From a virus, in IMG/VR virus record IMGVR_UViG_3300045988_051354, positions 35,058 to 99,057 of that record: DNA of 64,000 nt; one strand, given 5' to 3'. Each line of letters opens with the position of its first letter. Position 1 is the first letter of the stretch. Positions 1,189 to 62,407 of this stretch are shown here, piece after piece. The notes beneath the pieces are model-generated. The model did no database searches and was not told where the DNA came from. It saw only the letters and a program-made list of their open reading frames with translations. The translations under genes and the position numbers were made by a program.

Positions 1189-1297
1189 ATAGTTCGCTAC
1201 ACTATATGCGTTCTCTTATGAACTGCTGTATGTCACCATACAGGTCAGACTATATCACAATCCTATTAGGATTCTCCCCATTTCCACTGTCAATAGC

Positions 1298-1873: not shown

Positions 1874-2014
1874 AATGCTTAGCTGCTGATTGTCTTAATA
1901 CTAATTATTAAGTGCAAAGATAATGTAATTTACTTACATTTCCTAACTTTCTACCATTAATTAATGTTAAGATGTCCCAGCAATTAGAGGAGTTGTTCGA
2001 GATAGATTACTCTA

Positions 2015-25065: not shown

Positions 25066-27078
25066 TTAAAAGTTAACTTTAATGGTTCTTGTAAAGCTGC
25101 CAGTAACTTTACAGATAACACTATTGCGGATGGTAGATGAGAATCCTAAACCACTCAACTGATTATCAGAATAAGGAGCCTTCATCTTATTAGCTAACAT
25201 CTCAAACGTCTTACGATCCTGAGATAGTTCACTCCTAAGATATTCGTTAAAGAATCCTCTTACTGGAGATGGATTCTTGCACCCATCTAAGATAAAGAAA
25301 TAGTGTTTATTGCCTACTTCTGCACCGTTCCAATAATTTGGAGACAGAGTGAGTAACGATACCTTATGGAATTTGTTAGTAGACAAGTTCCACGTCTCTT
25401 TATCACTTGAATTACTCGGAAGGACATCATGTATGACAATTCCCTTGGCCTTAGAATACTCAAATCTGGCTACTGTCACTTTATCACGACCTCGAAGATC
25501 TGTTGTGTAGGTATACTCACGTACTTCTCCGTTACATTCAATTTCAACAGTAAATCCAACATCGTGATAATCTCTTTTGCAGAAATTGTGTACATATACG
25601 GTATACATACCTTCCATACGCGGTTCATCCTCCCAGATAACGTTCTCTACTGGTTTACGAGAATGTATACCACCAGCATTCATGTCAACATCTAGCACCC
25701 CACCAGAAGTTCCAGTTCTATGTGAATAATAGATTTCATTATCACGTGGTTGTATGATATGGATGTCTAAATCATCACCATTATACCATGCAAGAGAACA
25801 CCTTAGATATCCATTCACCTTACCTCCAGCAGCCTGCACCTTATCCTTAATAGAAGAATCTGCAAGGTCTCCATTGTATGTCCAAGCGAAATTGTTTGGC
25901 CATTTAAATAGATTCTTTGCATCTTTATTAGATGGAGCTGTTAGAGTCATAAGGTTGTTTATATGTCTACTTTCTAATAGAACTTCTATACTGGTAGCAT
26001 TGGGAACAACATCCTTAATAAAGTCCTCAATTGATATTTCAGCAACAGTACCTAATTTCTTAGGATTAACTGGAATATCTTCCGCTAAATCTTGGAATAC
26101 ACTATTCCCAAGCATTGACTTCTTAGCATTTCTATCAGCAAAGATTACATCATTAACTGTAATGTCAGTAATTTCTGCATGTCGCCTTGGAAGTGCATCC
26201 ATTAGCCCTAGTTCAATAACCCTAGCTTCAGCAGCTTGAATCATCTTCTTAGTAGCTATTGTCTTAGGTCTTTGATAATTAGCAGGAGCTACTATTCTCT
26301 CGTAAGCTCTTACACTTTCATCAAGTTCACGTCCATTGGAGATGTCTACAAGCAAAGTGCCTATAGCAGTATTCCTAATACGTCCTACATATCCAACTTT
26401 AGCAGATTCAACCCAGCAGAAATTATCACGTTCCTCACGGGGTACTACTTCATATTTCTTCTTAAGTGCAACAAATGCCTCTAGATCGGATTTGTACTGG
26501 TCTCCACGATACAAAGAACCTTGTGAAATCAAATCCAGAACAATGTCAAAAGCATCCATGGATAACTCATCCAAAGCTCGCTTCAATACTGTTTTATTGG
26601 TACGAAGTGCTCCTCTTACTGCTTCTTCAGAATCAGATACTGCACAAAGTAAATGATTAGGAAGCTTGTAAAATAAATGATTCCATGTATGTACGTGTCT
26701 CGTAGGAGTTTCTATCCACACATTGTTCTTATCTGTACCCAGTTTAACCACCTTACTAACAAATACGTCACATACTGGTTTAGATTTAACAAGTTGGGCT
26801 AAGTTTCTGGCTACTGTAGCATAAGGTTCATCTAACACTAAGGAATCCCAAATACTTACTAACTTGTTATTAACTATTGCAACTACATTGCCATAAGGTT
26901 TGATAAATTGACGACAGCAATTACATGTATGTGATTGTCTCTCGTCTTCTGGATAAGAATCTATGTAACAATCCCACAGCTCATCCTTATTAACATTAGT
27001 TAAATACAATCTATCAGCATTATTAGCTAAGGCATCAAATTGCTTATAAACTGCTCGTTTAAAATCAATAAATTCCAC
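25066..27078 (-). CDS. hypothetical large protein (670 aa)
   Basis: Long uninterrupted ORF. No family recognised by eye. Confidence 0.6.
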   Translation of the reverse strand: MEFIDFKRAVYKQFDALANNADRLYLTNVNKDELWDCYIDSYPEDERQSHTCNCCRQFIKPYGNVVAIVNNKLVSIWDSLVLDEPYATVARNLAQLVKSKPVCDVFVSKVVKLGTDKNNVWIETPTRHVHTWNHLFYKLPNHLLCAVSDSEEAVRGALRTNKTVLKRALDELSMDAFDIVLDLISQGSLYRGDQYKSDLEAFVALKKKYEVVPREERDNFCWVESAKVGYVGRIRNTAIGTLLVDISNGRELDESVRAYERIVAPANYQRPKTIATKKMIQAAEARVIELGLMDALPRRHAEITDITVNDVIFADRNAKKSMLGNSVFQDLAEDIPVNPKKLGTVAEISIEDFIKDVVPNATSIEVLLESRHINNLMTLTAPSNKDAKNLFKWPNNFAWTYNGDLADSSIKDKVQAAGGKVNGYLRCSLAWYNGDDLDIHIIQPRDNEIYYSHRTGTSGGVLDVDMNAGGIHSRKPVENVIWEDEPRMEGMYTVYVHNFCKRDYHDVGFTVEIECNGEVREYTYTTDLRGRDKVTVARFEYSKAKGIVIHDVLPSNSSDKETWNLSTNKFHKVSLLTLSPNYWNGAEVGNKHYFFILDGCKNPSPVRGFFNEYLRSELSQDRKTFEMLANKMKAPYSDNQLSGLGFSSTIRNSVICKVTGSFTRTIKVNF

Positions 27079-35346: not shown

Positions 35347-36393
35347 CTATGACTCCCTTACATACTCTTCATAAATATACAGTTCAAAGTTAGGTCTTAT
35401 AAACATATCTTTGTCTGTAGCTTCGTCCCAATGAGTAACTATAACCTTCTTGCGAACGTTATGGCTAAACATAGAATCAATATTGAGACTATGCCTAAAC
35501 AAAACTGGATCAAACTCTATAGCCCGGAAAGATTTCTGAAAGTCGTTAAATTGGTTGTTGGGGTCTACAACAGATCTAACTGGCTTATCAGAAGGAAACG
35601 GACCGTTACCATGACGCGTTATGTATGGTCTAGTAACGTAATTAACCGTAACGGTGTCATTACATCCAATTTGTTTTAGTATTCGATGAGCATTCTGTGA
35701 TGTTGTATTAGATGGAGTGCAATGGGGCATTATTCCGAATCTTTGGTCTAGTAATATACCTTGGGAACCTTCAAAGATAAGATTGTCGTAATCTTCCCAT
35801 ATAGCTTCTAAGGTACTTACTTGGACAGTGTTGAAATATGCATTCACAGTTCTGCACCAATTATCCAAGTCAATTGATGGATATACACTATTCATGTGAT
35901 AATAGTTGTCTGCTATTGCATTAACTTTCTCCCTAAGAATATGTATATTCAAGCAATCTATAACCATAAGATTATACCCCGACTTCACTCGGTCTAAACA
36001 CGTTTTAAAACCAGTCCCTACAGTACCATGACGTAGATTTACTACGTCACTTACTTGGGAATAGACGTCGAATGGTACTATGACTTGACATAATGGATTA
36101 TAAATAATTTTAGGAGTAATACCTAATTTCTTTAAATCCATTGCTTCAAGTGTAGAGGTTACTGGGTCTACAGTACAGTATTCAGACCAATATGTAGGCA
36201 CTCCTAGCAAGGTTCCACTTCCAAAGTTACTAAATGTGTGCATAAGGTCTCCGTATTTAACAGTATGGCCAACTTGATGTCCACCACTAAACCTTATTAC
36301 AAGTGAGTTCTCTGGATTCTTAGCACATATATTATGTACCGTCTGTCCCTTACCTTCATCGCCCATAAATGAGCCTAACACTATACTAATCAT
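35347..36393 (-). CDS. purA: Adenylosuccinate synthetase (PurA)-like
   Basis: The PurA N-terminal GDEGKG P-loop is present, followed by RFSGGHQVGHTV (compare GGxNAGHT). Start placed at the internal Met (MISIVLGSFMGDEGKG) because the tracked ORF's 5' extension overlaps the vWA gene. Confidence 0.6.
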   Translation of the reverse strand: MISIVLGSFMGDEGKGQTVHNICAKNPENSLVIRFSGGHQVGHTVKYGDLMHTFSNFGSGTLLGVPTYWSEYCTVDPVTSTLEAMDLKKLGITPKIIYNPLCQVIVPFDVYSQVSDVVNLRHGTVGTGFKTCLDRVKSGYNLMVIDCLNIHILREKVNAIADNYYHMNSVYPSIDLDNWCRTVNAYFNTVQVSTLEAIWEDYDNLIFEGSQGILLDQRFGIMPHCTPSNTTSQNAHRILKQIGCNDTVTVNYVTRPYITRHGNGPFPSDKPVRSVVDPNNQFNDFQKSFRAIEFDPVLFRHSLNIDSMFSHNVRKKVIVTHWDEATDKDMFIRPNFELYIYEEYVRES

Positions 36394-36397
36394 GATT

Positions 36398-37318
36398 TTA
36401 ATAGAAATTTTGTTTGTCTTCGGTAGTTGTACTACTAGAAGCATCACTAGGAGTTTCTGCATACACAGGCTCCTCGTAATTGTCTTTAATTGCTTTAGCA
36501 ATTACTTTATCCACTTCATCAGATTTGCACATTAGTACATTCTGTCCAAGTAGATTCTTCCAAGATTCAGCCACCCTTGTGCCATAACTGGCATTAGTAA
36601 TGTGAATGTGGAATACATGGTACTGCTCTTGTGCTTTCAGAATTGCTTCATTAGCACTAATAGAACCAGCACCTTTTTGATACCCTAGAATTTCAGTCAA
36701 ACTGTTACCTGGGATTCCTTGTAGATTAGGTTCATCACCAATAGTAAACAAGAATCCTTTAGTGTGTCTTTTGAACCAAGAATCGGTTTCAGTGTGATAT
36801 CCTGCAACTATGTGAGCTAATAAATAGCTCTCACCTGCATTACCACCACCTCCACCTTCTATTACTAAGGACTCTAATGAATTTAGAATCTTCTCAGTAT
36901 CAGATTCAAACTGTCCAACCTGAATAGGATATCTATCGTATTCGTGGTCTCCAACTGCCATAAACAACAATTGAGGATCACGTACTCCCATTTGCATGAC
37001 AGAATCCATAATCTTAGGTAAATGGTTCTTAATCATTTCATAAGGAGTATTCATCATTGAACCAGTAACATCCAGTGCAATGATTATCGGAGTAGAGTAT
37101 GGATGTTCTTGGGAGTCACGACACTCACGAACTCCAACATTGACCATTTCAGCTTTAACTTGAGTATTAAAGCTACGTGCATTTACATTAAATGACGCTG
37201 CTGTATTACTAGCATTTACTGAAATGTTCTTAAAGAGCTGGTCACGCGATGCTTTAGCATATCCTCTATCATCGGATAAAGTGCTATAAGCAATACTACT
37301 GTAAACACCACTTCCCAT
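36398..37318 (-). CDS. von Willebrand factor type A (vWA) domain protein
   Basis: MIDAS motif IIIALDVTGSM (DxSxS), then downstream T and D residues. Ser/Thr-rich C-terminus. Confidence 0.6.
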   Translation of the reverse strand: MGSGVYSSIAYSTLSDDRGYAKASRDQLFKNISVNASNTAASFNVNARSFNTQVKAEMVNVGVRECRDSQEHPYSTPIIIALDVTGSMMNTPYEMIKNHLPKIMDSVMQMGVRDPQLLFMAVGDHEYDRYPIQVGQFESDTEKILNSLESLVIEGGGGGNAGESYLLAHIVAGYHTETDSWFKRHTKGFLFTIGDEPNLQGIPGNSLTEILGYQKGAGSISANEAILKAQEQYHVFHIHITNASYGTRVAESWKNLLGQNVLMCKSDEVDKVIAKAIKDNYEEPVYAETPSDASSSTTTEDKQNFY

Positions 37319-43077: not shown

Positions 43078-43108
43078 CTTGTTAATAATTTAATCTGTTA
43101 ATAAATAG

Positions 43109-43183
43109 TGGGACAGGATGGAGTCGAACCATCATCTCTGAATTTTCAGTCCAGCGCGAACTGACCACCTGCGCTACTGCCCC
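43109..43183 (-). tRNA. tRNA-Phe(GAA)
   Basis: Acceptor GGGGCAG/CTGTCCC. Anticodon stem CTGGA/TTCAG with loop CTGAAAA. T-arm GATGG-TTCGACT-CCATC. Confidence 0.7.
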
Positions 43184-43459
43184 ATATTGCCTACACATAC
43201 GTCTTCACTGGATTTTATGCTTTATTACGCCAGTTGCTTTGGACAACCTAAATCCTTCAGTGCTGTACAATCTTAAAGGCGCCATACAGACTGCCATCGC
43301 ACCTACTCCCATTATCGTGTCACGCAACGTATCCACATCCACCTCTAGGACTTTCACCTAGACCACATCCTCGGCATTATAGTATCTTAGTGAATAATAA
43401 ACAATGAAACAAACTGGAAATTAATTTTAAAGTTAATATTATGTCTATAAGATACTAAG

Positions 43460-43533
43460 GGTGTTATGTCAGAATCGAACTGACGACCTATTGAACCACA
43501 ATCAAGTGCTCTAACCAACTGAGCTAATAACAC
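43460..43533 (-). tRNA. tRNA-His(GUG) with genomically encoded G-1
   Basis: G-GTGTTAT-TA-GCTC-AGTTGGTTA-GAGC...loop TTGTGGT...GTCAG-TTCGATT-CTGAC-ATAACAC-C. The extra 5' G pairs with discriminator C. Confidence 0.75.
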
Positions 43534-43542
43534 CATATATAG

Positions 43543-44049
43543 TTACTCATTCTCGTAACCTTCGCGCACTGCATTTGCAAATACTTGTTTACACATCTCG
43601 TATTCTAGAATGGCTAGTGCTAAGTCTTCTCCTACGTCTTCTACAAACTTGTCTCGGTTATCAGTCTCGTCAAGTTCGTTTAATACCGCTATCAAGTATT
43701 CTAGTAGTTCAAGACATCTATTGTAGCTTTCCCCAACTTTATTGATAATGGCTATCCTATCATTGCTTCTCTTATAGTACTTATGGGTTGAATAATTACA
43801 GTATAACACTACTAATGCACATATAAGTGTAGTAGTAGTGAATGCTTCATTTATATAACATAAGATACTGTGAGTTACAGTAGCAATTAATACAACTGTA
43901 TTAGCATAAAACATCCAATTTAAAGACTTGAGAGCTTTACGGTGTGATAATAAATTATCAACCTCTTCTTTTACCTCGTTAAGCGATTCTAATTCTTTTT
44001 CATACTGTTCACATGATACTTCAAGTAGTTCTTCACTCATATTATTCAA
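43543..44049 (-). CDS. hypothetical membrane protein
   Basis: 168 aa with a central TM region. Confidence 0.45.
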   Translation of the reverse strand: MNNMSEELLEVSCEQYEKELESLNEVKEEVDNLLSHRKALKSLNWMFYANTVVLIATVTHSILCYINEAFTTTTLICALVVLYCNYSTHKYYKRSNDRIAIINKVGESYNRCLELLEYLIAVLNELDETDNRDKFVEDVGEDLALAILEYEMCKQVFANAVREGYENE

Positions 44050-44062
44050 TTTAGTTTAATAG

Positions 44063-44135
44063 TGGACCGTGTGAGATTTGAACTCCTCCTTCATCTTGCA
44101 AGGATGATGTGCTCCCGGATTACACTACACAGCCC
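44063..44135 (-). tRNA. degenerate tRNA-like, anticodon UGC (Ala-like)
   Basis: Acceptor GGGCTGT/ACGGTCC. Anticodon stem TCATC/GATGA with loop CTTGCAA. The T-stem is only 3 bp (AGGAG/CTCAC) and the variable loop is 3 nt. Confidence 0.4.
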
Positions 44136-44238
44136 AGATTTAGTCTCACTATCGTAGGACTATAAGCTTCCAACGTCCGACTGGCTACGGAAGGTTATTT
44201 ACCGGTCTAATAACCTATTATTCATTTTATATGCTTTG

Positions 44239-44466
44239 TTACTTCTTAGTTAAGTACCTGTACACATCTTCGCTACTACTAGATACTACGATCATTACAC
44301 CTATCCAGGAGCTAATTACAAACAGTGCCAGAACTAGTAACATTCCATAGTCGAACTCGTAACGTTCTTTATTTCTTTGCCTTACTTTGTACTCAATAAT
44401 TAATCCGATTATGGTACGTAATAAAGCAGCAATGCATCCAGCCGAATAAATCCATAAGAACAACAT
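44239..44466 (-). CDS. small membrane protein (tandem paralogue of 44468..44677)
   Basis: Two TM helices. Shares SWIGV with its neighbour. Confidence 0.4.
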   Translation of the reverse strand: MLFLWIYSAGCIAALLRTIIGLIIEYKVRQRNKERYEFDYGMLLVLALFVISSWIGVMIVVSSSSEDVYRYLTKK

Positions 44467-44467
44467 A

Positions 44468-44677
44468 CTACTTCTTTCTAAACATCACTATACCTGGAGA
44501 TACAAATACTATAACTGCAACAACACCAATCCATGAAGTTATTACAAGAGTTAATTCCATTAATAAGTCACACAAGTTGTAAGTGTAATTAGAATTTCTC
44601 TTATAGTCACGATATTCATAGAAACACACAGCCATCAAAGCAACTACACATCCGATAATATAAATAATCAGCATCAT
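44468..44677 (-). CDS. small membrane protein (tandem paralogue of 44239..44466)
   Basis: Two TM helices. SWIGVVAV. Confidence 0.4.
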   Translation of the reverse strand: MMLIIYIIGCVVALMAVCFYEYRDYKRNSNYTYNLCDLLMELTLVITSWIGVVAVIVFVSPGIVMFRKK

Positions 44678-44702
44678 ACATTTTTAATTATTAGTTAATA
44701 AG

Positions 44703-44740
44703 TACCCCGACTGCGATTCGAACGCAGATATGTGGCTTAG
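44703..44740 (-). tRNA. split tRNA-Arg(UCU), 3' half
   Basis: CTAA-GCCAC-ATAT-CTGCG-TTCGAAT-CGCAG-TCGGGGT-A. Confidence 0.65.
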
Positions 44741-44748
44741 TATAAGAA

Positions 44749-44765
44749 CTAGGAGTCGAACCTAA
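44749..44765 (-). other. T-arm-like hairpin TTAGG-TTCGACT-CCTAG, 8 nt upstream of the tRNA-Arg(UCU) 3' half (shared insertion-end motif)
   Basis: See 40022..40038. Overlaps the stop codon of the HNH ORF. Confidence 0.5.
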
Positions 44766-45370
44766 TTCTTATTGTTATTAATTTCATTTTTATGGTAACG
44801 GTAATAGGAACGTTCTCCACACTTGTTCTTAGACTTATAAGTATCAAGCTGTGAATCACAGTTAGGACATATGCATCGTAAATTATCTCTACGATTGTTA
44901 GATGCATGTCCGTCTATATGGTCAATGATAAAGACCAGCTCTTTACCATTCCAGATAGGCTTCATACCACATATAGCACATACTCCACCTTGCTCTTTTA
45001 GAATATCTTTCTTGAAGGCCTTAGGAGAGTAGTTAGCTCTCATTATACTTTCATCACCGTCCAAAAGCTTCTTGTAAGCAAGCATATGAGCATGTTCAAA
45101 TTGACATTTAGGACCACAGTACTTGCCATAACTTCCGTTATAACTAATAAGTTCTGCACCACAGTTTAAACAGTATTTGTACTTCCTATTGAATGTTTCT
45201 TTAGGATTAATTTTACGTTTAATTGGTAACTCTATGCCAAGTCTACGCGCTACATTCTTAATATTAGCACCTGAACAACCATATCTTCTTCCTATTTCCT
45301 CATAACTGAGCTTATCTATCAAAATTAAATGCTCAAGTTGAGCTTTCTCGTTAATCCATTTACTTGTCAT
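44762..45370 (-). CDS. HNH homing endonuclease with N-terminal HTH, inside the insertion that splits tRNA-Arg(UCU)
   Basis: HTH LSYEEIGRRYGCSGANIKNVARRLGI. HNH motif VCAICG...FIIDHIDGHASNNRRDNLRCICPNCDSQ. Confidence 0.75.
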   Translation of the reverse strand: MTSKWINEKAQLEHLILIDKLSYEEIGRRYGCSGANIKNVARRLGIELPIKRKINPKETFNRKYKYCLNCGAELISYNGSYGKYCGPKCQFEHAHMLAYKKLLDGDESIMRANYSPKAFKKDILKEQGGVCAICGMKPIWNGKELVFIIDHIDGHASNNRRDNLRCICPNCDSQLDTYKSKNKCGERSYYRYHKNEINNNKN

Positions 45371-45486
45371 ATTCGTCTAAATTAGAAATTCGTACCTCAA
45401 AGATACGAATCTTTTACGAATTAAACAAGTAAATGGATGTTTTGTTGAAATTAATAACAGTGAGTTACGGACTCACCAGCCGTATG

Positions 45487-45520
45487 AAGGCCACTGTTCT
45501 ATCCCTTGAACTATCGAGGC
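45487..45520 (-). tRNA. split tRNA-Arg(UCU), 5' half
   Basis: GCCTCGA-TA-GTTC-AAGGGATA-GAAC-A-GTGGC-CTT. The D-arm is perfect. The acceptor pairs with TCGGGGT, and anticodon stem GTGGC pairs with GCCAC in the 3' half 746 nt away. The reconstituted loop is CTTCTAA. Confidence 0.65.
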
Positions 45521-45524
45521 ATTA

Positions 45525-45576
45525 ACAGAAGACATTGTAATCATATGTAACATGACACCTGCTGTATGTCTTCTTA
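45525..45576 (-). promoter_or_regulatory. conserved inverted-repeat element immediately upstream of the tRNA-Arg(UCU) 5' half
   Basis: acagaagac-[34 nt]-gctgtatgtcttctta. Confidence 0.45.
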
Positions 45577-45588
45577 GGCGATACTATT

Positions 45589-45936
45589 TTATGAACATAA
45601 AGCTATCAGTTCTTTAGTAGTCCTTTTATATTGCAATCTGTTATATCTTTCTCCCTTACATATTGCACAACTACAGGGAGTACTCATGGTTTTAAACCTA
45701 AAGGTATTCTTAGCATTATAAAGTTCAGTCCAGCTTATTGCTTTACGCCACTTATTACTGCTACAGATATACCAATGCGGAAATGACCGTTTAATCCTAG
45801 TAATATACTTCTGGTCTTTCTTTAGGTTCCTCCACAATTTGTTTCTGTGAATTCTTGATTCTTTCATGTTTAGTTCTTCCATCGTCTCGTCCACTAATAT
45901 TAACAATGTCCTGACTTGGATTGTAACCAGTACCAA
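45589..45936 (-). CDS. hypothetical basic Cys-containing protein
   Basis: 115 aa. Partly overlaps ORF 45797..45979. Confidence 0.35.
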   Translation of the reverse strand: MVLVTIQVRTLLILVDETMEELNMKESRIHRNKLWRNLKKDQKYITRIKRSFPHWYICSSNKWRKAISWTELYNAKNTFRFKTMSTPCSCAICKGERYNRLQYKRTTKELIALCS

Positions 45937-45993
45937 TGAATTTCTTCATATCTAGTCCCGATAAATTGATTGTCTTCATACGATAATTAAATT

Positions 45994-46281
45994 TTAATAG
46001 TTAAATACACTGTGATACTTTAGCCAATCTCTATAAGCTTTAGCATCCATGTTATAGGAATAATTCCAGTGAAACCTTCTCAGCTCCTTAATAAGTTCTG
46101 TTCGTATTTCATACGTGAGACGCACACCAGGTGCTGTATTAGATATATAGAATTGTTCTTTAACAAATGAGAAATACCCGTATAATATAGGTGTGCGCTT
46201 TCCCTTAAACTTATTAAGTAGAATAGCATGCAAACGGCTGTTATCCTTGCTGTACTTCGTTGGATATAGTGTCACGTTCAT
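45994..46281 (-). CDS. hypothetical protein
   Basis: 95 aa. Confidence 0.4.
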   Translation of the reverse strand: MNVTLYPTKYSKDNSRLHAILLNKFKGKRTPILYGYFSFVKEQFYISNTAPGVRLTYEIRTELIKELRRFHWNYSYNMDAKAYRDWLKYHSVFNY

Positions 46282-46567
46282 TGTCTAATATAGCAACAGC
46301 TAGACTATAACCATTATATAATGTCCCAATAAGACGTTTAAGTTTCTTCTTTATCTTCCTAGGAAGTTTTGGAAGATTAACATTCATAAGCTCTTCAGCT
46401 TCTTTATGTCTGGCTCTAACAGCAAGTTCTAAGTTCTTAGGGACATCTTCGGAATCAAAGAATGCGTTCAATACCGGCTCCTCTGGTAACAATCTTATGA
46501 CTCTGTAAGCTACTCTTGCTTTCTTATTGTTACTGAGCTGATCAACGTGTTTAAATTTCAATTTCAT
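46241..46567 (-). CDS. hypothetical protein
   Basis: 108 aa. Confidence 0.4.
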   Translation of the reverse strand: MKLKFKHVDQLSNNKKARVAYRVIRLLPEEPVLNAFFDSEDVPKNLELAVRARHKEAEELMNVNLPKLPRKIKKKLKRLIGTLYNGYSLAVAILDNERDTISNEVQQG

Positions 46568-46592
46568 AATCTTTCATTAATAAATTAATAAG

Positions 46593-46646
46593 AGGAAGGA
46601 CAGGGATTCGAACCCTGGGATCGCTGTTACACGACCAACAGTTTTG
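46593..46646 (-). tRNA. orphan tRNA 3' half (stem, class-II variable arm, T-arm, acceptor 3') directly after tRNA-Ser(UGA)
   Basis: CAAAA-CTGTT-GGTCGTGTAACAGCGATCC-CAGGG-TTCGAAT-CCCTG-TCCTTCC-T. No 5' half lies within 100 nt. A possible 5' partner is at 47143..47200. Confidence 0.45.
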
Positions 46647-46738
46647 AGGAAGCAGTGGGACTCCAACCCACACATCACTGTTACATGATTACTGGTGCTT
46701 TTCAAGAGCACTGCCTTAGCAATTAGGCTTATACTTCC
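46647..46738 (-). tRNA. tRNA-Ser(UGA), class II (non-canonical T-loop TTGGAGT)
   Basis: GGAAGTA-TA-AGCC..GGC-A-GTGCT-CTTGAAA-AGCAC-[23-nt variable arm]-GTGGG-TTGGAGT-CCCAC-TGCTTCC-T. Confidence 0.6.
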
Positions 46739-46739
46739 A

Positions 46740-47132
46740 TTACAATGAAACTTTATATTTGTCCCATTTATCCGTAAGAGTTAGAGTACTTTTAACTGTA
46801 ATCTCACTTGAAGGAATCTCGTACATATCGCCATTGACTACTACAATAAATAATATATCACATGTAGAATTATCAAAGTGTCTAATCTTTGATTGTCCAG
46901 AGGAGCCTCCACAATTCTTTAATAGAACTTCATAGTTGCCACTCTTTGATAGGTATTGAGTAGTTTTAACAGAAACTCTCTTCAGCCCATCTCTATCTAT
47001 TGCTATATCATATTTTTGAGTATCATTTAAAGGAATCAGGACAGGAATACAATTAGTTGTATAATAAGCTATAGCTCTACCCAGCCCTAAATTGCCTTGA
47101 TGTGATTTGTAGTCGCTTTCCCAAGCGTTCAT
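46740..47132 (-). CDS. small PD-(D/E)xK-like nuclease (third paralogue) immediately upstream of tRNA-Ser(UGA)
   Basis: LGLGRAIAYYTTNCIPVLIPL...YDIAIDRDGLKRVSVK is the same pattern as ORFs 9454 and 40022. Confidence 0.5.
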   Translation of the reverse strand: MNAWESDYKSHQGNLGLGRAIAYYTTNCIPVLIPLNDTQKYDIAIDRDGLKRVSVKTTQYLSKSGNYEVLLKNCGGSSGQSKIRHFDNSTCDILFIVVVNGDMYEIPSSEITVKSTLTLTDKWDKYKVSL

Positions 47133-47142
47133 TTACATAACA

Positions 47143-47200
47143 TTAAAAATTTCTAACTGTTTATCTAACCGTTGCATTAAGCCAACTCTGCCACCCTTCC
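47143..47200 (-). tRNA. tRNA 5'-fragment-like element (Ser-like acceptor + 3-bp D-stem, long D-loop + anticodon-arm-like hairpin)
   Basis: GGAAGGG-TG-GCA-GAGTTGGCTTAA-TGC-A-ACGGT-TAGATAA-ACAGT resembles a tRNA-Ser 5' portion. The acceptor is complementary to TCCTTCC of the orphan 3' half at 46593. Confidence 0.3.
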
Positions 47201-47324
47201 ATTAATAAGAGAGCATCTATCTTTCGATTACATACTCAATGACACTCTCCGAATTACTCCGGTCCTCGACAGTAGACCTTTACTGTTTAGCTAAAGCTGT
47301 CGACACTTTAGGTTATCAGTTTCG

Positions 47325-47399
47325 CACGCCCTGCACGACTCGAACATGCAACACACCCAGTTTTGGAGACAGGGGCTCTACCGATTGAGCTAAGGACGC
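47325..47399 (-). tRNA. tRNA-Trp(CCA)
   Basis: GCGTCCT-TA-GCTC-AATCGGTA-GAGC-C-CCTGT-CTCCAAA-ACTGG-[7-nt variable]-GCATG-TTCGAGT-CGTGC-AGGGCGT-G. Confidence 0.65.
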
Positions 47400-47661
47400 A
47401 TTTTAGTTACCAATCCTGAATGATTGTAAGGAACATTACTATAAAACCCGCTGTACCTACAGCAACTCTGCCATCTTCATTTAGTGGAGAATACACTGCT
47501 ATTAGAATTAATACAAATCCTAATAATAGTTGTAATATAAACTTAACATTTCTCATAATCACGCATCTCCAGAATTAGCAATCCACATGATGTATATAAT
47601 CATAATCACACCTACGACAAATTCTGTTAACATAATCAAATACATTTAAAATTAAACATTG

Positions 47662-47733
47662 CGGCGAGTGCAGGATTCGAACCTGCGACCAATTGGTTAA
47701 CGGCCAACTGCTCTACCACTGAGCTAACTCGCC
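47662..47733 (-). tRNA. tRNA-Asn(GUU)
   Basis: GGCGAGTTAGCTCAGTGGTAGAGCAGTTGGCCGTTAACCAATTGGTCGCAGGTTCGAATCCTGCACTCGCCG. Confidence 0.8.
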
Positions 47734-47742
47734 ATTTAAATA

Positions 47743-47940
47743 CTAAACACCATCTAGCATTATTAAGAAACCTATAATGGCTATCATAGAACCAATTATG
47801 ATTGGAACTCCTATAATATCTCCTAAGTTTACTAGTATTGGCAACAATAGAATCATGCATCCAATTAGAAACATGATAAGTCCTTTAATAAATCTGTGTG
47901 TCATAAAATCTATATATTTCCTACTGACAGGCGGCAGCAT
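47743..47940 (-). CDS. hypothetical small membrane protein
   Basis: 65 aa, two TM helices. The overlapping tracked ORFs are probably spurious. Confidence 0.35.
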   Translation of the reverse strand: MLPPVSRKYIDFMTHRFIKGLIMFLIGCMILLLPILVNLGDIIGVPIIIGSMIAIIGFLIMLDGV

Positions 47941-48160
47941 GATTATCCATGCGGAATTATCATGCCTGTGGGAGTCATTACATAAGTCTTAGAGACTTGA
48001 ATGAAATACCACTTAACTGCTTTCTTAATTAACTTAAATAGTTTCATAATAACTCAGTTTTAGTCAGTAAATTAATAATCTAAAAGGAAACCACTCTATC
48101 TTCACAGACCGAGTGGTCGAATACAATTTGCACTTCAAGTTGCTTAATTAAAGCATTCCT

Positions 48161-48232
48161 AGTGACTCCGCAGGGACTTGAACCCTGTTCTATAGATTAA
48201 AAGTCTATAGCATATCCATACATGCTCCGGAG
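48161..48232 (-). tRNA. tRNA-Lys(UUU)
   Basis: GACTCCG-GA-GCAT..ATGC-T-ATAGA-CTTTTAA-TCTAT-AGAA-CAGGG-TTCAAGT-CCCTG-CGGAGTC-A. Confidence 0.8.
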
Positions 48233-48237
48233 TCATC

Positions 48238-48307
48238 CTACAGAAGACAGAATTAAATCACACGAATAAATTGGCGGTTGCCAAGTCATGAAGTGCTGAC
48301 GTCTTCT
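48238..48307 (-). promoter_or_regulatory. conserved inverted-repeat element immediately upstream of tRNA-Lys
   Basis: acagaagac-[52 nt]-gctgacgtcttctta. Confidence 0.45.
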
Positions 48308-48325
48308 TATATTTCACTAAATCGA

Positions 48326-48399
48326 AGAGTGGGCGCTCGGATTCGAACCGAGGAATACAGATTTTGCAGACCTGCCTATTAAGCCACTCTAGCACGCCC
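48326..48399 (-). tRNA. tRNA-Cys(GCA)
   Basis: Acceptor GTGGGCG/CGCCCAC. Anticodon stem CAGGT/ATCTG with loop CTGCAAA. T-arm CTCGG-TTCGAAT-CCGAG. Confidence 0.7.
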
Positions 48400-48499
48400 A
48401 CATGTCAATGGACTAATGTGAGGCGAAAGTGAAACGGTTTAATCATTAAGGTCTTAATGATTGGATCTAGTGAAACTAAATAAACATACAAATAAATCG

Positions 48500-48573
48500 T
48501 CTGGGTAGCCGGGTACGATCCGACACTCTCTAGCTCCCAAAGCTAGCGGATTAACCTATTCTCCTATACCCAG
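48500..48573 (-). tRNA. tRNA-Pro(UGG) with atypical T-loop ATCGTAC
   Basis: Acceptor CTGGGTA/TACCCAG. Anticodon stem CTAGC/GCTAG with loop TTTGGGA. T-stem GTCGG/CCGGC. Confidence 0.55.
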
Positions 48574-48578
48574 AGTGC

Positions 48579-48622
48579 GGAAGTCTAAATATGCTTGACA
48601 TGGGTTATGCTGTAAGACTTCC
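48579..48622 (-). promoter_or_regulatory. covarying variant of the inverted-repeat element upstream of tRNA-Pro
   Basis: ggaagtct-[28 nt]-gctgtaagacttcc. The arms have changed in a complementary way compared with agaagac/gtcttct. Confidence 0.4.
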
Positions 48623-48643
48623 TATTAATTCGAAATCAAGACG

Positions 48644-48718
48644 TGGGCAAGATAGGACTTGAACCTATGACCCCTACTTTATCAGAGTAGTGCTCTAGAC
48701 CTACTGAGCTACTTGCCC
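48644..48718 (-). tRNA. tRNA-Ile(GAU)
   Basis: GGGCAAGTAGCTCAGTAGGTCTAGAGCACTACTCTGATAAAGTAGGGGTCATAGGTTCAAGTCCTATCTTGCCCA. Confidence 0.8.
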
Positions 48719-48722
48719 ATCC

Positions 48723-48788
48723 ACAGAAGACGCTACCAATACTAATCATATAAGAGGCGTGTGCTGTACGTCTTCTTAAATAAAATAA
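48723..48788 (-). promoter_or_regulatory. conserved inverted-repeat element immediately upstream of tRNA-Ile
   Basis: acagaagac-[48 nt]-gctgtacgtcttctta. Confidence 0.45.
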
Positions 48789-48807
48789 TCATTTATGGAT
48801 TATATGG

Positions 48808-48822
48808 TTGCGGAGATGGGAG
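48808..48822. repeat. 15-nt direct repeat ttgcggagatgggag (copy of the tRNA(CAU) 49535 3' end) flanking the GIY-YIG gene; second copy at 49534..49548
   Basis: Exact 15-mer at both ends of the 48823..49473 cassette. The distal copy lies inside a 9-bp palindrome, AGATGGGAG...CTCCCATCT. Confidence 0.6.
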
Positions 48823-49473
48823 CTATTGTGCATACTCCCATCTATATCCGTATGCTGTCTTAGTCTTGTGCTTAGCTGCATTAGAGATATGGCTTCTAAC
48901 ACCTCCGTTATATGTCTTAGCATAACCATTATCAACACACCAATGTGCTGCGTCAGCCACGCTATTAAACACTTGCACAAGTATATCTTCGTTGTACTGT
49001 TCTATCTTTACTGGAGGTTTACAGGAGCCACAATGTGACTCGCTATTACTGTGGGATCTCTTGATATCCTTCACTACTTTGGACACTGTATCTGGATGAC
49101 ATCCTACTATTTTAGCAGTCTCTTTCATCGAATGTCTAGCAGCGTAGAGCTCACGAATTTCATCATAGTTCCAAATAATAGAACCATCTCCACCGGTAGT
49201 GGCATTATAACCATTACCATAGGTTTTAAATTCATTTATCCAGTAAGTTTCTCTTCCGCTAGATTCCTTTGACGAGCACTCTTCTAGCATTTCTATGCTA
49301 AATGAATCAATTCCATATTTATTCATGGCTCTATACAAAGGTCTATCTTTGCATCTCTCCTTCTTATAATCTCTACAGTGTTCTTTCCATCTCTTACTAA
49401 CGGACGAAGTAGTTTTACCTATATACTTCTTTCCATTTACATGGTTAGTTATGCAGTAAATATAAGACATCAA
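48823..49473 (-). CDS. GIY-YIG homing endonuclease (I-TevI/Seg-like)
   Basis: YIYCITNHVNGKKYIGKT (GIY and YIG), conserved R/E/N, and a C-terminal DNA-binding region. Flanked by a 15-nt direct repeat of a tRNA 3' end. Confidence 0.8.
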   Translation of the reverse strand: MMSYIYCITNHVNGKKYIGKTTSSVSKRWKEHCRDYKKERCKDRPLYRAMNKYGIDSFSIEMLEECSSKESSGRETYWINEFKTYGNGYNATTGGDGSIIWNYDEIRELYAARHSMKETAKIVGCHPDTVSKVVKDIKRSHSNSESHCGSCKPPVKIEQYNEDILVQVFNSVADAAHWCVDNGYAKTYNGGVRSHISNAAKHKTKTAYGYRWEYAQ

Positions 49474-49534
49474 GCTTTAGTCGAATTAGCGTTACCCGAA
49501 TCTCACCACGTGGAGGTTTCGACTATGAGATTCT

Positions 49535-49612
49535 TGCGGAGATGGGAGTCGAACCCAATATAACTAGCTTATGAGACTAGTATGATTTATATATCCGTTT
49601 CATTCCTCCGCA
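49535..49612 (-). tRNA. tRNA(CAU) (third CAU tRNA; extended D-arm)
   Basis: Acceptor TGCGGAG/CTCCGCA. Anticodon stem CTAGT/GCTAG with loop CTCATAA. T-arm TTGGG-TTCGACT-CCCAT. The D-loop is unusually long, at about 13 nt. Confidence 0.5.
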
Positions 49613-49615
49613 AAG

Positions 49616-49687
49616 TGCTCCATACAGGATTCAAACCTGTGACACGTAGGTTTAGGGTCTACTGTTCTATCGCTGAACTAATGGAGC
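49616..49687 (-). tRNA. candidate suppressor tRNA, anticodon CUA (reads UAG), with C33 and an A31-C39 mismatch
   Basis: GCTCCAT-TA-GTTC-AGCGATA-GAAC-A-GTAGA-CCCTAAA-CCTAC-GTGTC-ACAGG-TTTGAAT-CCTGT-ATGGAGC-A. The acceptor, D-arm and T-arm are perfect. The anticodon triplet CUA sits at 34-36 of a 7-nt loop. Confidence 0.5.
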
Positions 49688-49788
49688 GTGTGGCAATGCT
49701 TTTAAGGTGCACCGCCAATTCATCCTACTACTTACTTCTTACCCCCGTAAGACCAGTTGCAACATGCTAACTGCTATGGAGCCTTGTT

Positions 49789-50094
49789 TCAGTAATTTCC
49801 TACTAATTTAAGTTTCTTGAACATACGACCATCATCTTGTAATGCGATTGCTGTTAATTGGTTATTAAGGTCTGGTTCACGGAACATAGAGTAATCCTTA
49901 TTAGTAAGGTCTAATCTAACTCTCCATTTATCCAAGTCAGCATATAAGTAGATTAAGTAGTTATTGTTCCAATTCTGATTAGGGTGTTCCAATAACCACT
50001 GTGCTACTGCATGACCACCTTGTACACAACCATAAACTACATCAAGCTTCTGGTCTATCAGCACATACAGTCTCTTCATCAGAATATGCATCAA
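49789..50094 (-). CDS. hypothetical protein
   Basis: 101 aa. Confidence 0.4.
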   Translation of the reverse strand: MMHILMKRLYVLIDQKLDVVYGCVQGGHAVAQWLLEHPNQNWNNNYLIYLYADLDKWRVRLDLTNKDYSMFREPDLNNQLTAIALQDDGRMFKKLKLVGNY

Positions 50095-50389
50095 TTAGTG
50101 AATCAACTCTACTCACAAAGTATTTCCATGTTTCCTTTGAGTAATCTCCACCGGAGCAACCGTACCAGCCGTTGAATTTTAATTTCTTCCAAGAATCTAA
50201 TACTTGCTTGTAATAAGCTTCTTGCGCATCCCCAACCAGTTTATGTTTTAGAATGTAATAAGCTACATACATTGCATGTAATAAACCTCTGTTACGATAT
50301 ACTTCTGATTGATGATTAATTCTTTTAGCGACCTTCTGTGCTTTTACTAATTCGCTAATTTCTCTTTTAAAATCGTTAATTGTTGCCAT
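50042..50389 (-). CDS. hypothetical protein
   Basis: 115 aa. Confidence 0.45.
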   Translation of the reverse strand: MATINDFKREISELVKAQKVAKRINHQSEVYRNRGLLHAMYVAYYILKHKLVGDAQEAYYKQVLDSWKKLKFNGWYGCSGGDYSKETWKYFVSRVDSLIDAYSDEETVCADRPEA

Positions 50390-50478
50390 AATAATTAGTT
50401 GTTAATAAGTTAATAAAATTGTAATTTCTAAATAACAGACTAACTGTTATGGTGGTTTGTAAGAAATCTACCGCATAA

Positions 50479-50763
50479 TCATTTCCTTTTAAATTGTTTG
50501 CACATGTTAATAAACTCATCTTCCGATTCGCATATAATCGGATTTATTTCCTTAATAAAATCCTCCTGATAAGCTTCTTTGGACAAATCATCTATCCCAT
50601 CAGGGTAAACACCATGCACGTCATAAGCCATATTGGATTCCCAACAACAGAGCCAATCAGCTTCTTTAAACGATGAACATATACATACACTTATTCCAGA
50701 TTGCTCTAACCTTTGTCTAAGTTCTGGAGTATTACTTTTAATAATACAGCATTTACTCATCAC
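50479..50763 (-). CDS. hypothetical Cys-rich protein
   Basis: 94 aa. Confidence 0.4.
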   Translation of the reverse strand: MMSKCCIIKSNTPELRQRLEQSGISVCICSSFKEADWLCCWESNMAYDVHGVYPDGIDDLSKEAYQEDFIKEINPIICESEDEFINMCKQFKRK

Positions 50764-51137
50764 TCACTTTCACTGACGAATGGAGTCCAACTAAGACTAA
50801 GTGACTCTACTGTGTTATCGTCACTAATGGCAGTAGCTCTAGCAGTAAAACCTCCATGACCGACATTATATGCAAATACATCAGAAGTGTCATCTAAATG
50901 TTTATAAAATTCCGGATCAAGTAATGTGTCAATAACCCTCTCTGCTGTCTCTCTCAACAATTTAGCAGTCAGGAATTTACCATTCCATGATACTGAAGCT
51001 GCTATAGGCGAGGAGGCCAACTTATGGAAATCACAAGGCTGATTGACATCTATGTATAGATTATATATTTCCAATATCCTCTCGAAATCCATACCGTCTA
51101 AACATTCATTTTTAATCTTTTCACTTACACTGTTCAT
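50760..51137 (-). CDS. hypothetical protein
   Basis: 125 aa. Confidence 0.45.
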   Translation of the reverse strand: MNSVSEKIKNECLDGMDFERILEIYNLYIDVNQPCDFHKLASSPIAASVSWNGKFLTAKLLRETAERVIDTLLDPEFYKHLDDTSDVFAYNVGHGGFTARATAISDDNTVESLSLSWTPFVSESE

Positions 51138-51158
51138 AATACTTCAAATTTAAAACGA

Positions 51159-51230
51159 GAGCGGGATAACAGAATCGAACTGTCATCTTCAGCTTGGAAG
51201 GCTGTTATAATAACCATTATACGAATCCCG
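51159..51230 (-). tRNA. tRNA-Gly(UCC)
   Basis: Acceptor GCGGGAT/ATCCCGC. Anticodon stem CAGC/GCTG with loop CTTCCAA. T-arm GACAG-TTCGATT-CTGTT. Confidence 0.7.
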
Positions 51231-51319
51231 CAGTTTACTTCTACTATTCTCACGAACCATAGAAGGGTTTGCTGAGCGAATGCTCAACAGATGTTGTATT
51301 TAATTATCGCAGTGTGGGG

Positions 51320-51403
51320 TGGGCCCGGGAGGACTCGAACCTCCAGTCCAATTAAGGAGTAGATTTACAGTCTACGCGGCTACCAATTACCGGTTACGTG
51401 CCC
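51320..51403 (-). tRNA. tRNA-Tyr(GUA), class II
   Basis: Anticodon stem GTAGA/TCTAC with loop CTGTAAA. Long variable arm. T-arm GGAGG-TTCGAGT-CCTCC. Acceptor GGGCACG/CGGGCCC has one A-G mismatch. Confidence 0.6.
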
Positions 51404-51651
51404 AAATCACACAATCCATATTAACTGATGAATTGTGAGTGCAAAGATAAGTAATCCTTCTCACATATAAAAGTTAATATGTATTAAATACAACATGGGG
51501 AAATTTAATTGGATATAGACTTACTATCTTCACAGACTGTAAGCCTTTATGACCATTTCCAATAGTTGCTGTTTTAAGTAGTAATGGCAATGACACAGAT
51601 GCAACTATCGGAAATTCTTTATGAGTAATTTAAAACTACAGTAATAATAGT

Positions 51652-51719
51652 CAGCTAGGTGGGATTCGAACCCACACCACTTACAAATTATGTAAGTCTT
51701 CTAACTTAAATTACTAGCC
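51652..51719 (-). tRNA. degenerate tRNA-like element (no D-arm; odd anticodon hairpin CTTAC-ATAATTT-GTAAG)
   Basis: Acceptor GGCTAG(T)/CTAGCTG is imperfect. T-arm GTGGG-TTCGAAT-CCCAC is perfect. Probably a pseudogene or a non-canonical tRNA. Confidence 0.3.
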
Positions 51720-51828
51720 TTACCGCTCACAGGCATCATTCAAATAAATCCCATCTAATAGATTAGATATGTAATTAGACTGTCTTTGATTTGTAATGCA
51801 CTTCTAATTACATAAGGAATTTAATCTT

Positions 51829-53547: not shown

Positions 53548-53908
53548 CTTGTAAAATTAAATTAGCAGGTTAATCTGAGAGTTCTTTATTCTAATTGATA
53601 AAATGGGACACATAGACATTGAGCCAGCTTAATACAACTCGCTACTTACACACTACATGCCCCATATCAAATGAGGAAAGAGGTTCACTTGATGACCTAT
53701 CTACGTGCTGATTATAACGTAGACCGTGCAGATTCTCTCTCACACAATACTATGATGGACTCAAACCATCTCCACCCCTAGGTGAACTTTCCGTTATTCG
53801 AATAGTACAGGTTTCAACTCTTTATAACGCCTTTAAGTCAAAGTATACTCCGGAATATACTCTTAGTTCATCAGACCAAGTTTGCGCTTAGAATTATCTA
53901 AGATTAAG

Positions 53909-60912: not shown

Positions 60913-60987
60913 GTGAACCAGAGTAGATTCGAACTACTAACCTTTCTCTAGATGAGAATGTTCTTCCGGAAATTGAACTACTGGTTC
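60913..60987 (-). tRNA. tRNA-like element with non-canonical anticodon arm
   Basis: GAACCAG-TA-GTTC-[11-nt loop]-GAAC-A-TTCTC-ATCTA-GAGAA-AGGTT-AGTAG-TTCGAAT-CTACT-CTGGTTC-A. The acceptor, D-arm and T-arm are perfect. The anticodon arm is 5 bp with a 5-nt loop, or 4 bp with a 7-nt loop CATCTAG. Confidence 0.4.
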
Positions 60988-62407
60988 TAGCCCAAGCCTA
61001 TTTCACAACAAACTTGGGTTAAAGTAAATAACAACTTTATATATTATGATACACTTATTTGCATTTTACACCTAAAACTTAGAATCTTGCATGCAACTGC
61101 AATCTATTACATTTGTCTGACAAGGACAAACAACTAAGAAACTGGTGCCCTCAATGTCTTGGGATGTTATTGAGTTTTTTAAAAGTCCTTATAATCCTCT
61201 CTTTTAAGATAACTTAGAACTTTAGGTCTAGACTTGTACTTCGTCTATCCAAGTTTGTACTGTGCGAATACTTCGGATTATAGAGTGTATAGCACAATCC
61301 TCTAAAGTTTAGAGTATACACAATCTTTTGGGACTTTGTTATACTATTCTTGCCCAGGGAGTAGCGTAAACCGTCATATTAAACCGACATGTATCAATCC
61401 ACGGCCCCTTGATACTGGATCTACATTATTAGTAACGAATATAGTGCCTGTCTTTCCAGGCTGTCACCAAACTTATAAATCGGAATTGGTTTCCTGTACG
61501 GTTTATCCTTAAACTTTTAAGTGCGTTACTAGTAAACCGCCTAAAAGATACAGCACTACTGGTTTAAACTACCCTACCAGCAAGTAAAGCTCGTCTTTCC
61601 GAGCCGCCATGCTATCCCTTGTGTCACAGTACTCGCAACATACCATAACAGAACGTTCCTTTAGCCGATTACCCACACACCCCTACGTACAATGGTGGAA
61701 CGCAGCTTTCGCTACGATTAACAACTCTAGCTTTCTTCCCCTTCTTGGTTCTCCGTCATTACGGTTTGTATTATTGAAAGCGTGGAGGAATGGTCCTCAC
61801 ATTACTACTTAAAGCAATGTGGTTTTACCATTATTTACTCACAAATACATTTTCTTTGTGAGTCTATCATAGCTCTTGTACGCATTACTCGGCAGAGGAG
61901 CCTTACCGAAACCTACAATGTAGGACGCTGTTTAAAACTTAAAAATTAATATAATTAAAACAATCATGTGGACTCCTGCTTTAACGCATGAAGCAGGAAC
62001 GTTTAACTTTTGGCACTACATACATTATGTCCGTTTTGTGATGTAGGGATTCTAAGTATTTGCAACTACTCAGAAGAGCTAAACCAGGTTGCCTATCCTT
62101 TACAGCGATAGGCGTTCTGTTTATTTATAACTGCATCCAACAATTACCATGCCAAGCAAATTCTGCATCACCGATTCTCATTCTCCACTCAGAACCATCA
62201 TCAGTATAGAATTCATATTGTCTTCTGAAAGCTTCTTCACTTGAAATTGTTGTTGTATGTCCGTCTGACCAAATTATCTTATCCATAATTGTATATGTAA
62301 CTAACCTTTACGTTACGAGGTTTTAAATTGTTAATCAGACTCCTGCATATAGCAGAAGTTTCGTCCAGTCTCATCAGTGATTATTTTATAGACTCCTGGT
62401 TGTCTTA

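Follow-up and report, generated by a model that had tools for sequence, protein, structure and literature searches.

Suppressor tRNAs in phages are usually taken as markers of recoding, and annotation pipelines may switch the genetic code when they find one. The phages that use code 15, in which TAG encodes an amino acid (crAss-like phages, Lak phages, and others; Borges et al. 2021/2022; Peters et al. 2022, PMC9523058), have suppressors predicted to insert glutamine. They resemble the phage described here in that they are large gut phages whose CUA tRNA is encoded in an early region that uses the standard code. They differ in that their late genes are full of in-frame TAG codons, whereas the present phage has none. 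The tRNA in our window (the whole 64,000-nt stretch of DNA that was analyzed), which has G1-C72 and A73, also has no special likeness to the phage's own tRNA-Gln, with which it is identical at 43/73 positions.

Within the Zeta group of crAss-like phages, suppressor presence and codon reassignment do not match (Yutin et al. 2021, PMC7886860), and some members recode TAG (PMC7886860; PMC12386605). The phages of Zeta "clade 8" have genomes of 164-188 kb with a GC content of 35.4-36.9%, polA, Bacteroides hosts, and 20-29 tRNAs, and a CTA suppressor is present in all of them, with "no suppression" (PMC12386605). The combination seen here is thus already known in kind: Zeta crAss-like phages that have a CTA suppressor and show no suppression were reported in 2021 and discussed at length in 2025. 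The papers on clade 8 and the Zeta group (PMC12386605, PMC7886860) do not describe the anticodon loop. What the present analysis adds is modest: the loop with C32-C33 and A31, a conserved 31/39 mismatch, and compensatory changes between lineages.

The E. coli suppressor supF (tRNA-Tyr with G34 changed to C) has in common with the window tRNA a CUA followed by A37-A38 ("CUAAA"), a context that, in Yarus's extended-anticodon idea, is reportedly favorable for reading UAG. The body of supF is that of a class II bacterial tRNA-Tyr, whereas the window tRNA is class I. Efficient laboratory suppressors are not known to have C33 or a 31/39 mismatch; the window tRNA has both. With tRNA-Pyl it shares only the CUA anticodon. 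The pylT gene has a 3-nt variable loop, a 6-bp anticodon stem, and a reduced D-loop and is accompanied by pylS/BCD genes, whereas the window tRNA is an ordinary cloverleaf with a variable loop of 5 nt, an anticodon stem of 4-5 bp, and a D-loop of 7 nt, and its T-arm is normal. Its annotated neighbors include no pyl genes. The "Pyl" label given by ARAGORN is only that program's name for any CTA anticodon, and we rejected it, as the pylT hallmarks are absent.

The carrier phage

The carrier is a Zeta-group crAss-like phage of the gut with a genome of ~182 kb. By its coordinates, the window is the final 64 kb of a contig of ~182.6 kb. We placed the phage in the Zeta group by hallmark genes and genome properties. 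A 1593-aa protein matches the Pfam family PF25731 crAss_MUZ (muzzle), the capsid of the relative MT835470.1 (75-84% identical) matches PF23898 Crass_capsid with 52.3 bits, and the DNA polymerase is of family A (PF00476 DNA_pol_A). The nearest annotated terminases are those of crAss-like phages of Bacteroides, at 28-30% identity. Zeta genomes are 145-192 kb long and rich in introns, inteins, homing endonucleases, and tRNAs; here the contigs are 176-187 kb long and there are 25 tRNAs. NrdD is encoded in three pieces (window 385..3064 on the minus strand; locus L009, 8125..12104) with HNH and GIY-YIG genes between them, and these interruptions are intron-type insertions. A PD-(D/E)XK protein carries an intein in some strains. 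The GC content of the window is 36.25%, and this phage and clade 8 both have polA, a CTA tRNA, and no recoding. The phage thus matches clade 8 by its properties, set beside the published genomes by description only.

The phage is very common in human-gut assemblies; one of its small proteins is indexed in 2986 blocks. A megablast search with 10 kb around the CUA tRNA against GenBank phages returned nothing useful, and a search of genome contigs with the thymidylate synthase gave no match and no clue to the host. A metagenome search with a 292-aa endonuclease, a mobile homing gene, found unrelated phages only.

The window contains a replication/early block, encoded entirely on the minus strand, with genes for a DnaB-like helicase, a SNF2-type helicase, NrdD, a PurZ-like adenylosuccinate synthetase, and nucleases. 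The PurZ-like gene (35347..36501, minus strand) matches PHROG 1211, the PurZ type of genomes with 2-aminoadenine (Z-base), at E=1e-43; judging by this similarity, its presence could mean modified DNA. A 670-aa DUF8224 protein (25066..27078, minus strand; PHROG 1735, E=8e-253) has counterparts at 47% identity in Vequintavirinae and in many other large myoviruses that infect Proteobacteria and Bacillus, which is unusually conserved for a gene of a crAss-like phage. Some records name it an RNA polymerase. The Klebsiella Mydovirus OY979426.1, which shares this protein, has only replication and metabolism genes in two stretches of 40-50 kb. Two RNAs of the window score above the Rfam gathering threshold, a RAGATH-34 RNA at 53804..53901 (86.9 bits) and a RAGATH-1 hammerhead ribozyme at 62333..62406 (82.6 bits), both on the minus strand.

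The CUA tRNA gene and its array

The gene at 49616..49687 (minus strand) is a genuine phage tRNA gene with a UAG-reading anticodon, and hence a candidate amber suppressor. ARAGORN calls it at 49615..49687 on the minus strand with anticodon CTA. The Rfam model RF00005 matches 49616..49687 with 56.8 bits (gathering score 29; E=1.4e-9 for the whole window), and in the cmscan alignment the match is full length (1-71/71). The tRNA is a class I molecule of 72 nt with a 5-nt variable loop and discriminator A73; CCA is not encoded in the gene. On the minus strand, the gene reads GCUCCAU UA GUUC AGCGAUA GAAC A GUAGA CCCUAAA CCUAC and, after CCUAC, continues with GUGUC ACAGG UUUGAAU CCUGU AUGGAGC A. All pairs of the acceptor (7/7), D (4/4), and T (5/5) stems are Watson-Crick. 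Position 56 in the T-loop (UUUGAAU) is U instead of C, and GG is absent from the D-loop (AGCGAUA).

The anticodon loop, CCCUAAA (49651..49657, minus strand), spans the 7 nt of positions 32-38 and consists of C32, C33, the anticodon C34-U35-A36, A37, and A38. The anticodon itself is at 49653..49655, which reads "tag" on the plus strand. An A31.C39 mismatch, flagged by cmscan, closes the anticodon stem, and in the minimum free energy structure from RNAfold, which is a cloverleaf, the anticodon stem is reduced to 4 bp and its loop is effectively 9 nt long. Two features of elongator tRNAs, U33 and a closed 31-39 pair, are therefore absent from this molecule (C33, A31.C39). The initial annotation had described flawless acceptor, D-, and T-arms and a CCCUAAA loop with anticodon CUA and C at position 33. 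The pairing and the Rfam score bear out the first point, ARAGORN and Infernal agree on the second, and C33 is read directly from the sequence. A different anticodon register, which the annotation had named as evidence that would speak against it, was given by neither program.

The gene lies in the core of a phage tRNA array (43108..51404, minus strand). All 25 tRNAs that ARAGORN calls in the window are on the minus strand, which is the strand of the replication/early genes. The conserved upstream neighbors, tRNA-Tyr(GUA) and tRNA-Gly(UCC) (51159..51404, minus strand), were called in the window and in L261, L265, and L251-L260, and by them the CUA tRNA can be located at its syntenic site in each lineage. 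Directly downstream is a gene for a GIY-YIG homing endonuclease (48823..49473, minus strand; 215-aa product, with the Pfam GIY-YIG assignment in L251-L260). It is present in some strains only, and we regard it as context with no functional link to the tRNA. Depending on the strain, the suppressor and tRNA-Ile are ~220 to ~1650 nt apart. The array is a hotspot for mobile elements, with endonuclease genes of the GIY-YIG and PDDEXK_5 types that lie between the tRNA genes and differ by strain.

The tRNA-Asn-GUU of the array (47661..47733, minus strand) has the loop CCGUUAA and thus also C32-C33. At 73.7 bits, its Rfam score is second only to one other tRNA of the window. The Asn tRNAs that were extracted from three other lineages (L261, L263, L265) have the loop CUGUUAA. 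Just upstream of tRNA-Tyr, Rfam finds a tRNA that ARAGORN missed (51651..51720, minus strand; 42.7 bits), with the loop AUAAUUU and a poor D-arm. At the corresponding position, relatives have other odd tRNA-like genes to which ARAGORN assigns "anticodons" of 2 or 4 bases (L261 11876..11950, L263 13163..13257, L265 13033..13110).

ARAGORN makes a second CTA call at 60913..60987 (minus strand). We rejected it as a suppressor, as it scores below the Rfam gathering threshold and does not fold as a cloverleaf. Its acceptor, D, and T stems are perfect and its anticodon arm is ambiguous, with either a 5-bp stem and a 5-nt loop or a mismatched stem and the loop AUCUAGA. The gene is absent from L016, L018, L142, and L148 and its loop differs in L143 and L145. 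It is probably a degenerate, tRNA-like remnant.

Stop codons and the genetic code

The phage does not recode UAG in its own genes, which use the standard code throughout. In the window, no pair of ORFs is split by an in-frame TAG alone and TAG terminates 10/80 long ORFs. Coding coverage of the window increases from 0.73 to 0.79 when TAG is read as sense, and the same increase is obtained for TGA, so this is noise.

Beyond the window we surveyed the genome IMGVR_UViG_3300045988_023864 (182,517 bp; L005/L148), which has the identical tRNA. About 70-75% of it was covered; ~22-29 kb of the late block of this species, from portal to muzzle, was seen only via the 75-84% identical relative MT835470.1. 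The early strand continues with genes for a CCA-adding enzyme, polynucleotide kinase, the DNA polymerase, thymidylate synthase, and dNMP kinase; the phage also encodes an RNA ligase. The coding strand switches at ~97 kb, and the opposite-strand block includes ORFs of 1010, 606, 2927, 2258, 976, 809, and 1526 aa. In the 10,119 codons of these giant ORFs there are 0 in-frame stops of any kind, compared to 781 off-frame TAG. The run of 2927, 2258, 976, 809, and 1526 aa is at L244 4880..13663, L218 3791..10567, and L206 1679..11614. Compared with PHROG and Pfam, these giant ORFs have almost no family matches; the 2927-aa protein includes an SF1-helicase/AAA_30 segment and the 1526-aa protein has a weak PD-(D/E)XK match. 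Based on adjacency to crAss_MUZ and on the literature, they are probably the crAss-type transcription/cargo (virion) block.

Further upstream in this block, the genes of the crAss muzzle protein and its neighbors (L266) are uninterrupted under table 11. The late block begins with the terminase and a 733-aa portal (L267), without in-frame TAG. The terminase gene (L267 12730..15655) is in two pieces, and the terminase itself ends in TAG. We considered the split as a possible read-through site and rejected this: exon 1 ends in TGA, the two parts do not share a reading frame, and a LAGLIDADG endonuclease is encoded in the gap of ~600 nt, so it is an intron-type insertion. The MT835470.1 terminase is uninterrupted (762 aa). 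Of the whole ~80-kb late block of that relative (28000..108000; L271-L273), 92.5% is in ORFs of at least 120 aa under table 11, and nothing in it, including the capsid and several tail fiber genes, merges when TAG is read as sense.

We compared codes 11 and 15 at 45 late-region loci. Forty-three loci from at least four lineages are intact under table 11, with late-region coverage of 0.96-1.00 that is essentially the same under code 15. These include the species of the window and three nearer lineages, among them L243, which belongs to the genome with the canonical-loop suppressor L261. As a positive control, two distant Zeta relatives with 33-35% identity, L213 (IMGVR_UViG_3300045988_077386) and L214 (IMGVR_UViG_3300045988_087270), increase in coverage from 0.08 and 0.00 to 1.00 with TAG as sense. 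These two are clearly TAG-recoded, so the comparison works. In their first 11 kb, which contain homologous giant late genes, the longest ORFs are 108-159 aa under table 11 and 1405-1913 aa with TAG as sense.

Across 146 genes of the species, TAG ends 25 (17%; 22/117 early and 3/29 late) and thus is not avoided. The extensions that read-through would add are short after TAG (median of 3 codons, maximum of 25) and similar after TGA (median of 4; Mann-Whitney p=0.57), and both are shorter than those after TAA (p=0.003 for TAG and 0.006 for TGA). We therefore rejected backup stops specific to TAG as a sign of suppression, since the TAG tails are no shorter than the TGA tails, and there is no TAG-specific genomic footprint of suppression. 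Short TAG tails also mean that read-through would be harmless to the phage. In MT835470.1, TAG ends 0/47 ORFs of the late block (41 end in TAA and 6 in TGA) and 4/39 early ORFs.

These results sort the remaining statements of the initial annotation. The genes of the window do use standard stops, as it had said. It had compared the locus to large Bacteroidetes phages that recode TAG; the carrier is a Bacteroidota phage with recoded relatives (L213/L214), but it uses the standard code itself. The recoding that was expected in late genes did not appear in the terminase, the portal, the muzzle, or the ~10,000 codons of the giant ORFs, and the suggested comparison of coding density between tables 11 and 15 showed no gain with TAG as sense. 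Genes interrupted by TAG, on which that proposal depended, were not found, which leaves recoding close to refuted.

Conservation, origin, and possible role

Its sequence record identifies the CUA tRNA as a selected, evolutionarily conserved gene. The 72 nt are identical in at least 16 genomes of the species, six IMG/VR contigs (L001-L006) and ten ENA/Logan genomes (L251-L260, on contigs of 178-382 kb). In the same genomes the neighboring tRNAs vary in length and the GIY-YIG and PDDEXK_5 genes come and go. Divergent relatives were reached through a 572-aa protein that neighbors the CUA tRNA. A syntenic CUA tRNA follows tRNA-Tyr and tRNA-Gly in a sister lineage, L261/L262, where the neighboring protein is 64% identical, and in a more distant one, L265, where it is 45% identical. 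The three-way alignment has no variation at CUA, A37, A38, and C39. Both partners changed in 7 of 21 base pairs across the three lineages and 95% of cells are paired, a count that relates to three distinct homolog sequences; 0/500 shuffles reach the observed values and slid controls are 25-47% paired. The sole unpaired position is 31/39, which is mismatched in all three lineages (A.C, C.C, and C.C). Both relatives have the canonical loop UUCUAAA with U33 and a C31.C39 mismatch, so A31-C32-C33 is a derived feature of the species of the window. The tRNA is missing from the array in three other Zeta lineages (L263/L264, L268, and L269).

The amino acid identity and origin of the tRNA are less clear from its relatives within the array. 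The closest paralog is tRNA-Asn in the window (51/73), a tie of Asn, Lys, and Arg in L002, and tRNA-Val in L265. In L261 it is tRNA-Arg-UCU (52/73), with which the CUA tRNA shares the T-loop UUUGAAU and nearly all of the acceptor stem. Given these discordant results (Asn, Arg, Lys, Val), we rejected assignment of an isotype by closest paralog. The best GenBank matches are annotated as tRNA-Arg (77.6%) and tRNA-Met. A search with the T-arm only returned many unrelated phage tRNAs, and identities taken from those matches are inflated by construction. The UUCUAAA of the relatives is the tRNA-Arg(UCU) loop, C-UUCUAA, shifted by one base, and such a shift would create the C31.C39 mismatch. As a lead from this comparison, the family may derive from tRNA-Arg(UCU) by a register shift. 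An origin of the anticodon arm from tRNA-Tyr was rejected: the arms are 14/17 identical in the window, and the likeness is lost in other strains and lineages, so on sequence grounds it is probably coincidental.

Since the CUA tRNA persists without recoding, another explanation is needed, such as sabotage of the host or its defenses, interference between phages, or fine-tuned read-through. We favor, at a probability of roughly 60%, a functional, selectively maintained CUA tRNA in a standard-code Zeta crAss-like phage of Bacteroides, probably a weak suppressor, with a benefit that lies outside the phage's own ORFs. The tRNA would be transcribed with the early-strand array and processed, and CCA would be added by a CCA-adding enzyme, one of which the phage encodes along with enzymes for tRNA repair. 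A37 is probably modified, as the A36-A37-A38 context suits modification. We infer that a host synthetase charges the tRNA, which would then compete with RF1 for UAG codons. As in-frame UAG is absent from the phage's own ORFs, the tRNA is not for decoding these, and the phage's UAG-terminated genes would gain only the short tails described above. The benefit may be that UAG stops of the infected cell are read through, which would weaken the host or its defense proteins, an effect proposed as a hypothesis in PMC12386605. Alternatively, the tRNA may interfere with co-infecting recoded phages.

U33 is near-universal in tRNAs and is linked to the U-turn of the anticodon loop, so C33 should lower decoding efficiency. 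The change from UUCUAAA to CCCUAAA should reduce decoding by way of the U-turn, and this points to a suppressor that is probably weak in this species. C33 together with the unpaired 31/39 position could make the tRNA a poor decoder.

Other explanations must be weighed against this one. The unusual loop is all that would suggest a chance tRNA-like sequence or an assembly artifact, and given the Rfam E-value, the same sequence in independent assemblies from many samples, and covariation across lineages, the probability of either is negligible. That the tRNA drives a switch to code 15 in late and structural genes is a model established for other crAss-like phages, and the CUA anticodon, the position in an early-strand array, and the recoded homologous late genes of L213/L214 would all agree with it. 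We consider it very improbable here, since the terminase, portal, muzzle, and giant ORFs are uninterrupted, as are the capsid and tail fiber genes of the relative, nothing is gained under code 15, the terminase ends in TAG, and no suppression is reported for the clade that this phage matches (PMC12386605). A more plausible alternative, though still an unlikely one, is a relic: an inherited suppressor, of use in the past or not yet of use, that was largely disabled by the change of U32U33 to C32C33 and is now neutral cargo. It is consistent with C33 in this species only while relatives keep U33, with a genome that has no TAG-specific adaptation, and with a tRNA that is dispensable, as its absence from the same array position in L263, L268, and L269 indicates. 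It is related to the idea that such suppressors represent an incipient code change (Yutin 2021, PMC7886860), against which PMC12386605 argues likewise. Against the relic stand a molecule that is otherwise flawless and identical in 16 or more genomes despite variable flanks, and compensatory changes across lineages, which amount to long-term purifying selection without recoding. The tRNA-Asn of the array, presumably functional, also has C33, which thus need not disable a tRNA in this host.

The tRNA might also not be an amber suppressor at all, and act as a decoy or resistant substitute aimed at a host anticodon nuclease or be read in another register by way of the 9-nt loop. Phage tRNAs with anticodon-loop changes that evade host nucleases are known (PMC10264068), which favors a decoy, although position 33 and suppressors are not treated there. 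For a shifted register, a -1 reading turns UCU into CCU in the species of the window, both of them Arg anticodons; all three lineages keep a mismatch at 31/39, and tRNA-Arg is both the closest paralog in L261 and among the best GenBank matches. The Arg likeness is not robust, as three isotypes tie in the window and L002 and the closest in L265 is Val. No stem pairing supports the shifted register, CUA is the anticodon of a 7-nt loop according to both ARAGORN and Infernal, and CUA is invariant while positions 31-33 vary, as selection on a CUA anticodon predicts. We regard a role other than suppression as improbable. Also improbable, and speculative, is that the species-wide change of positions 31-33 from C-U-U to A-C-C was adaptive, either tuning suppression down to a tolerable level or conferring resistance to a Bacteroides anticodon-loop nuclease, possibly after an origin from Arg(UCU) by register shift. 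The tRNA-Asn of the array, which also gained C33, can be set beside the idea of nuclease resistance. If the change was adaptive, Zeta phages would be a natural system for the role of a suppressor in a non-recoding virus.

For the selectively maintained tRNA that we favor, the comparison, with its positive control, indicates that long divergence need not remove a conserved CUA tRNA from a very abundant human-gut phage with the standard code. The structural details (C32-C33, the 31/39 mismatch, and the compensatory changes) could guide experiments and leave the overall picture unchanged. The Zeta group appears to have gained suppressors on more than one occasion. A 188-kb contig (L270 2189..2278, minus strand) encodes a CUA tRNA unrelated to that of the window, a class II molecule with a long variable arm, the loop CUCUAAA, and discriminator A, which is Tyr- or Leu-like.
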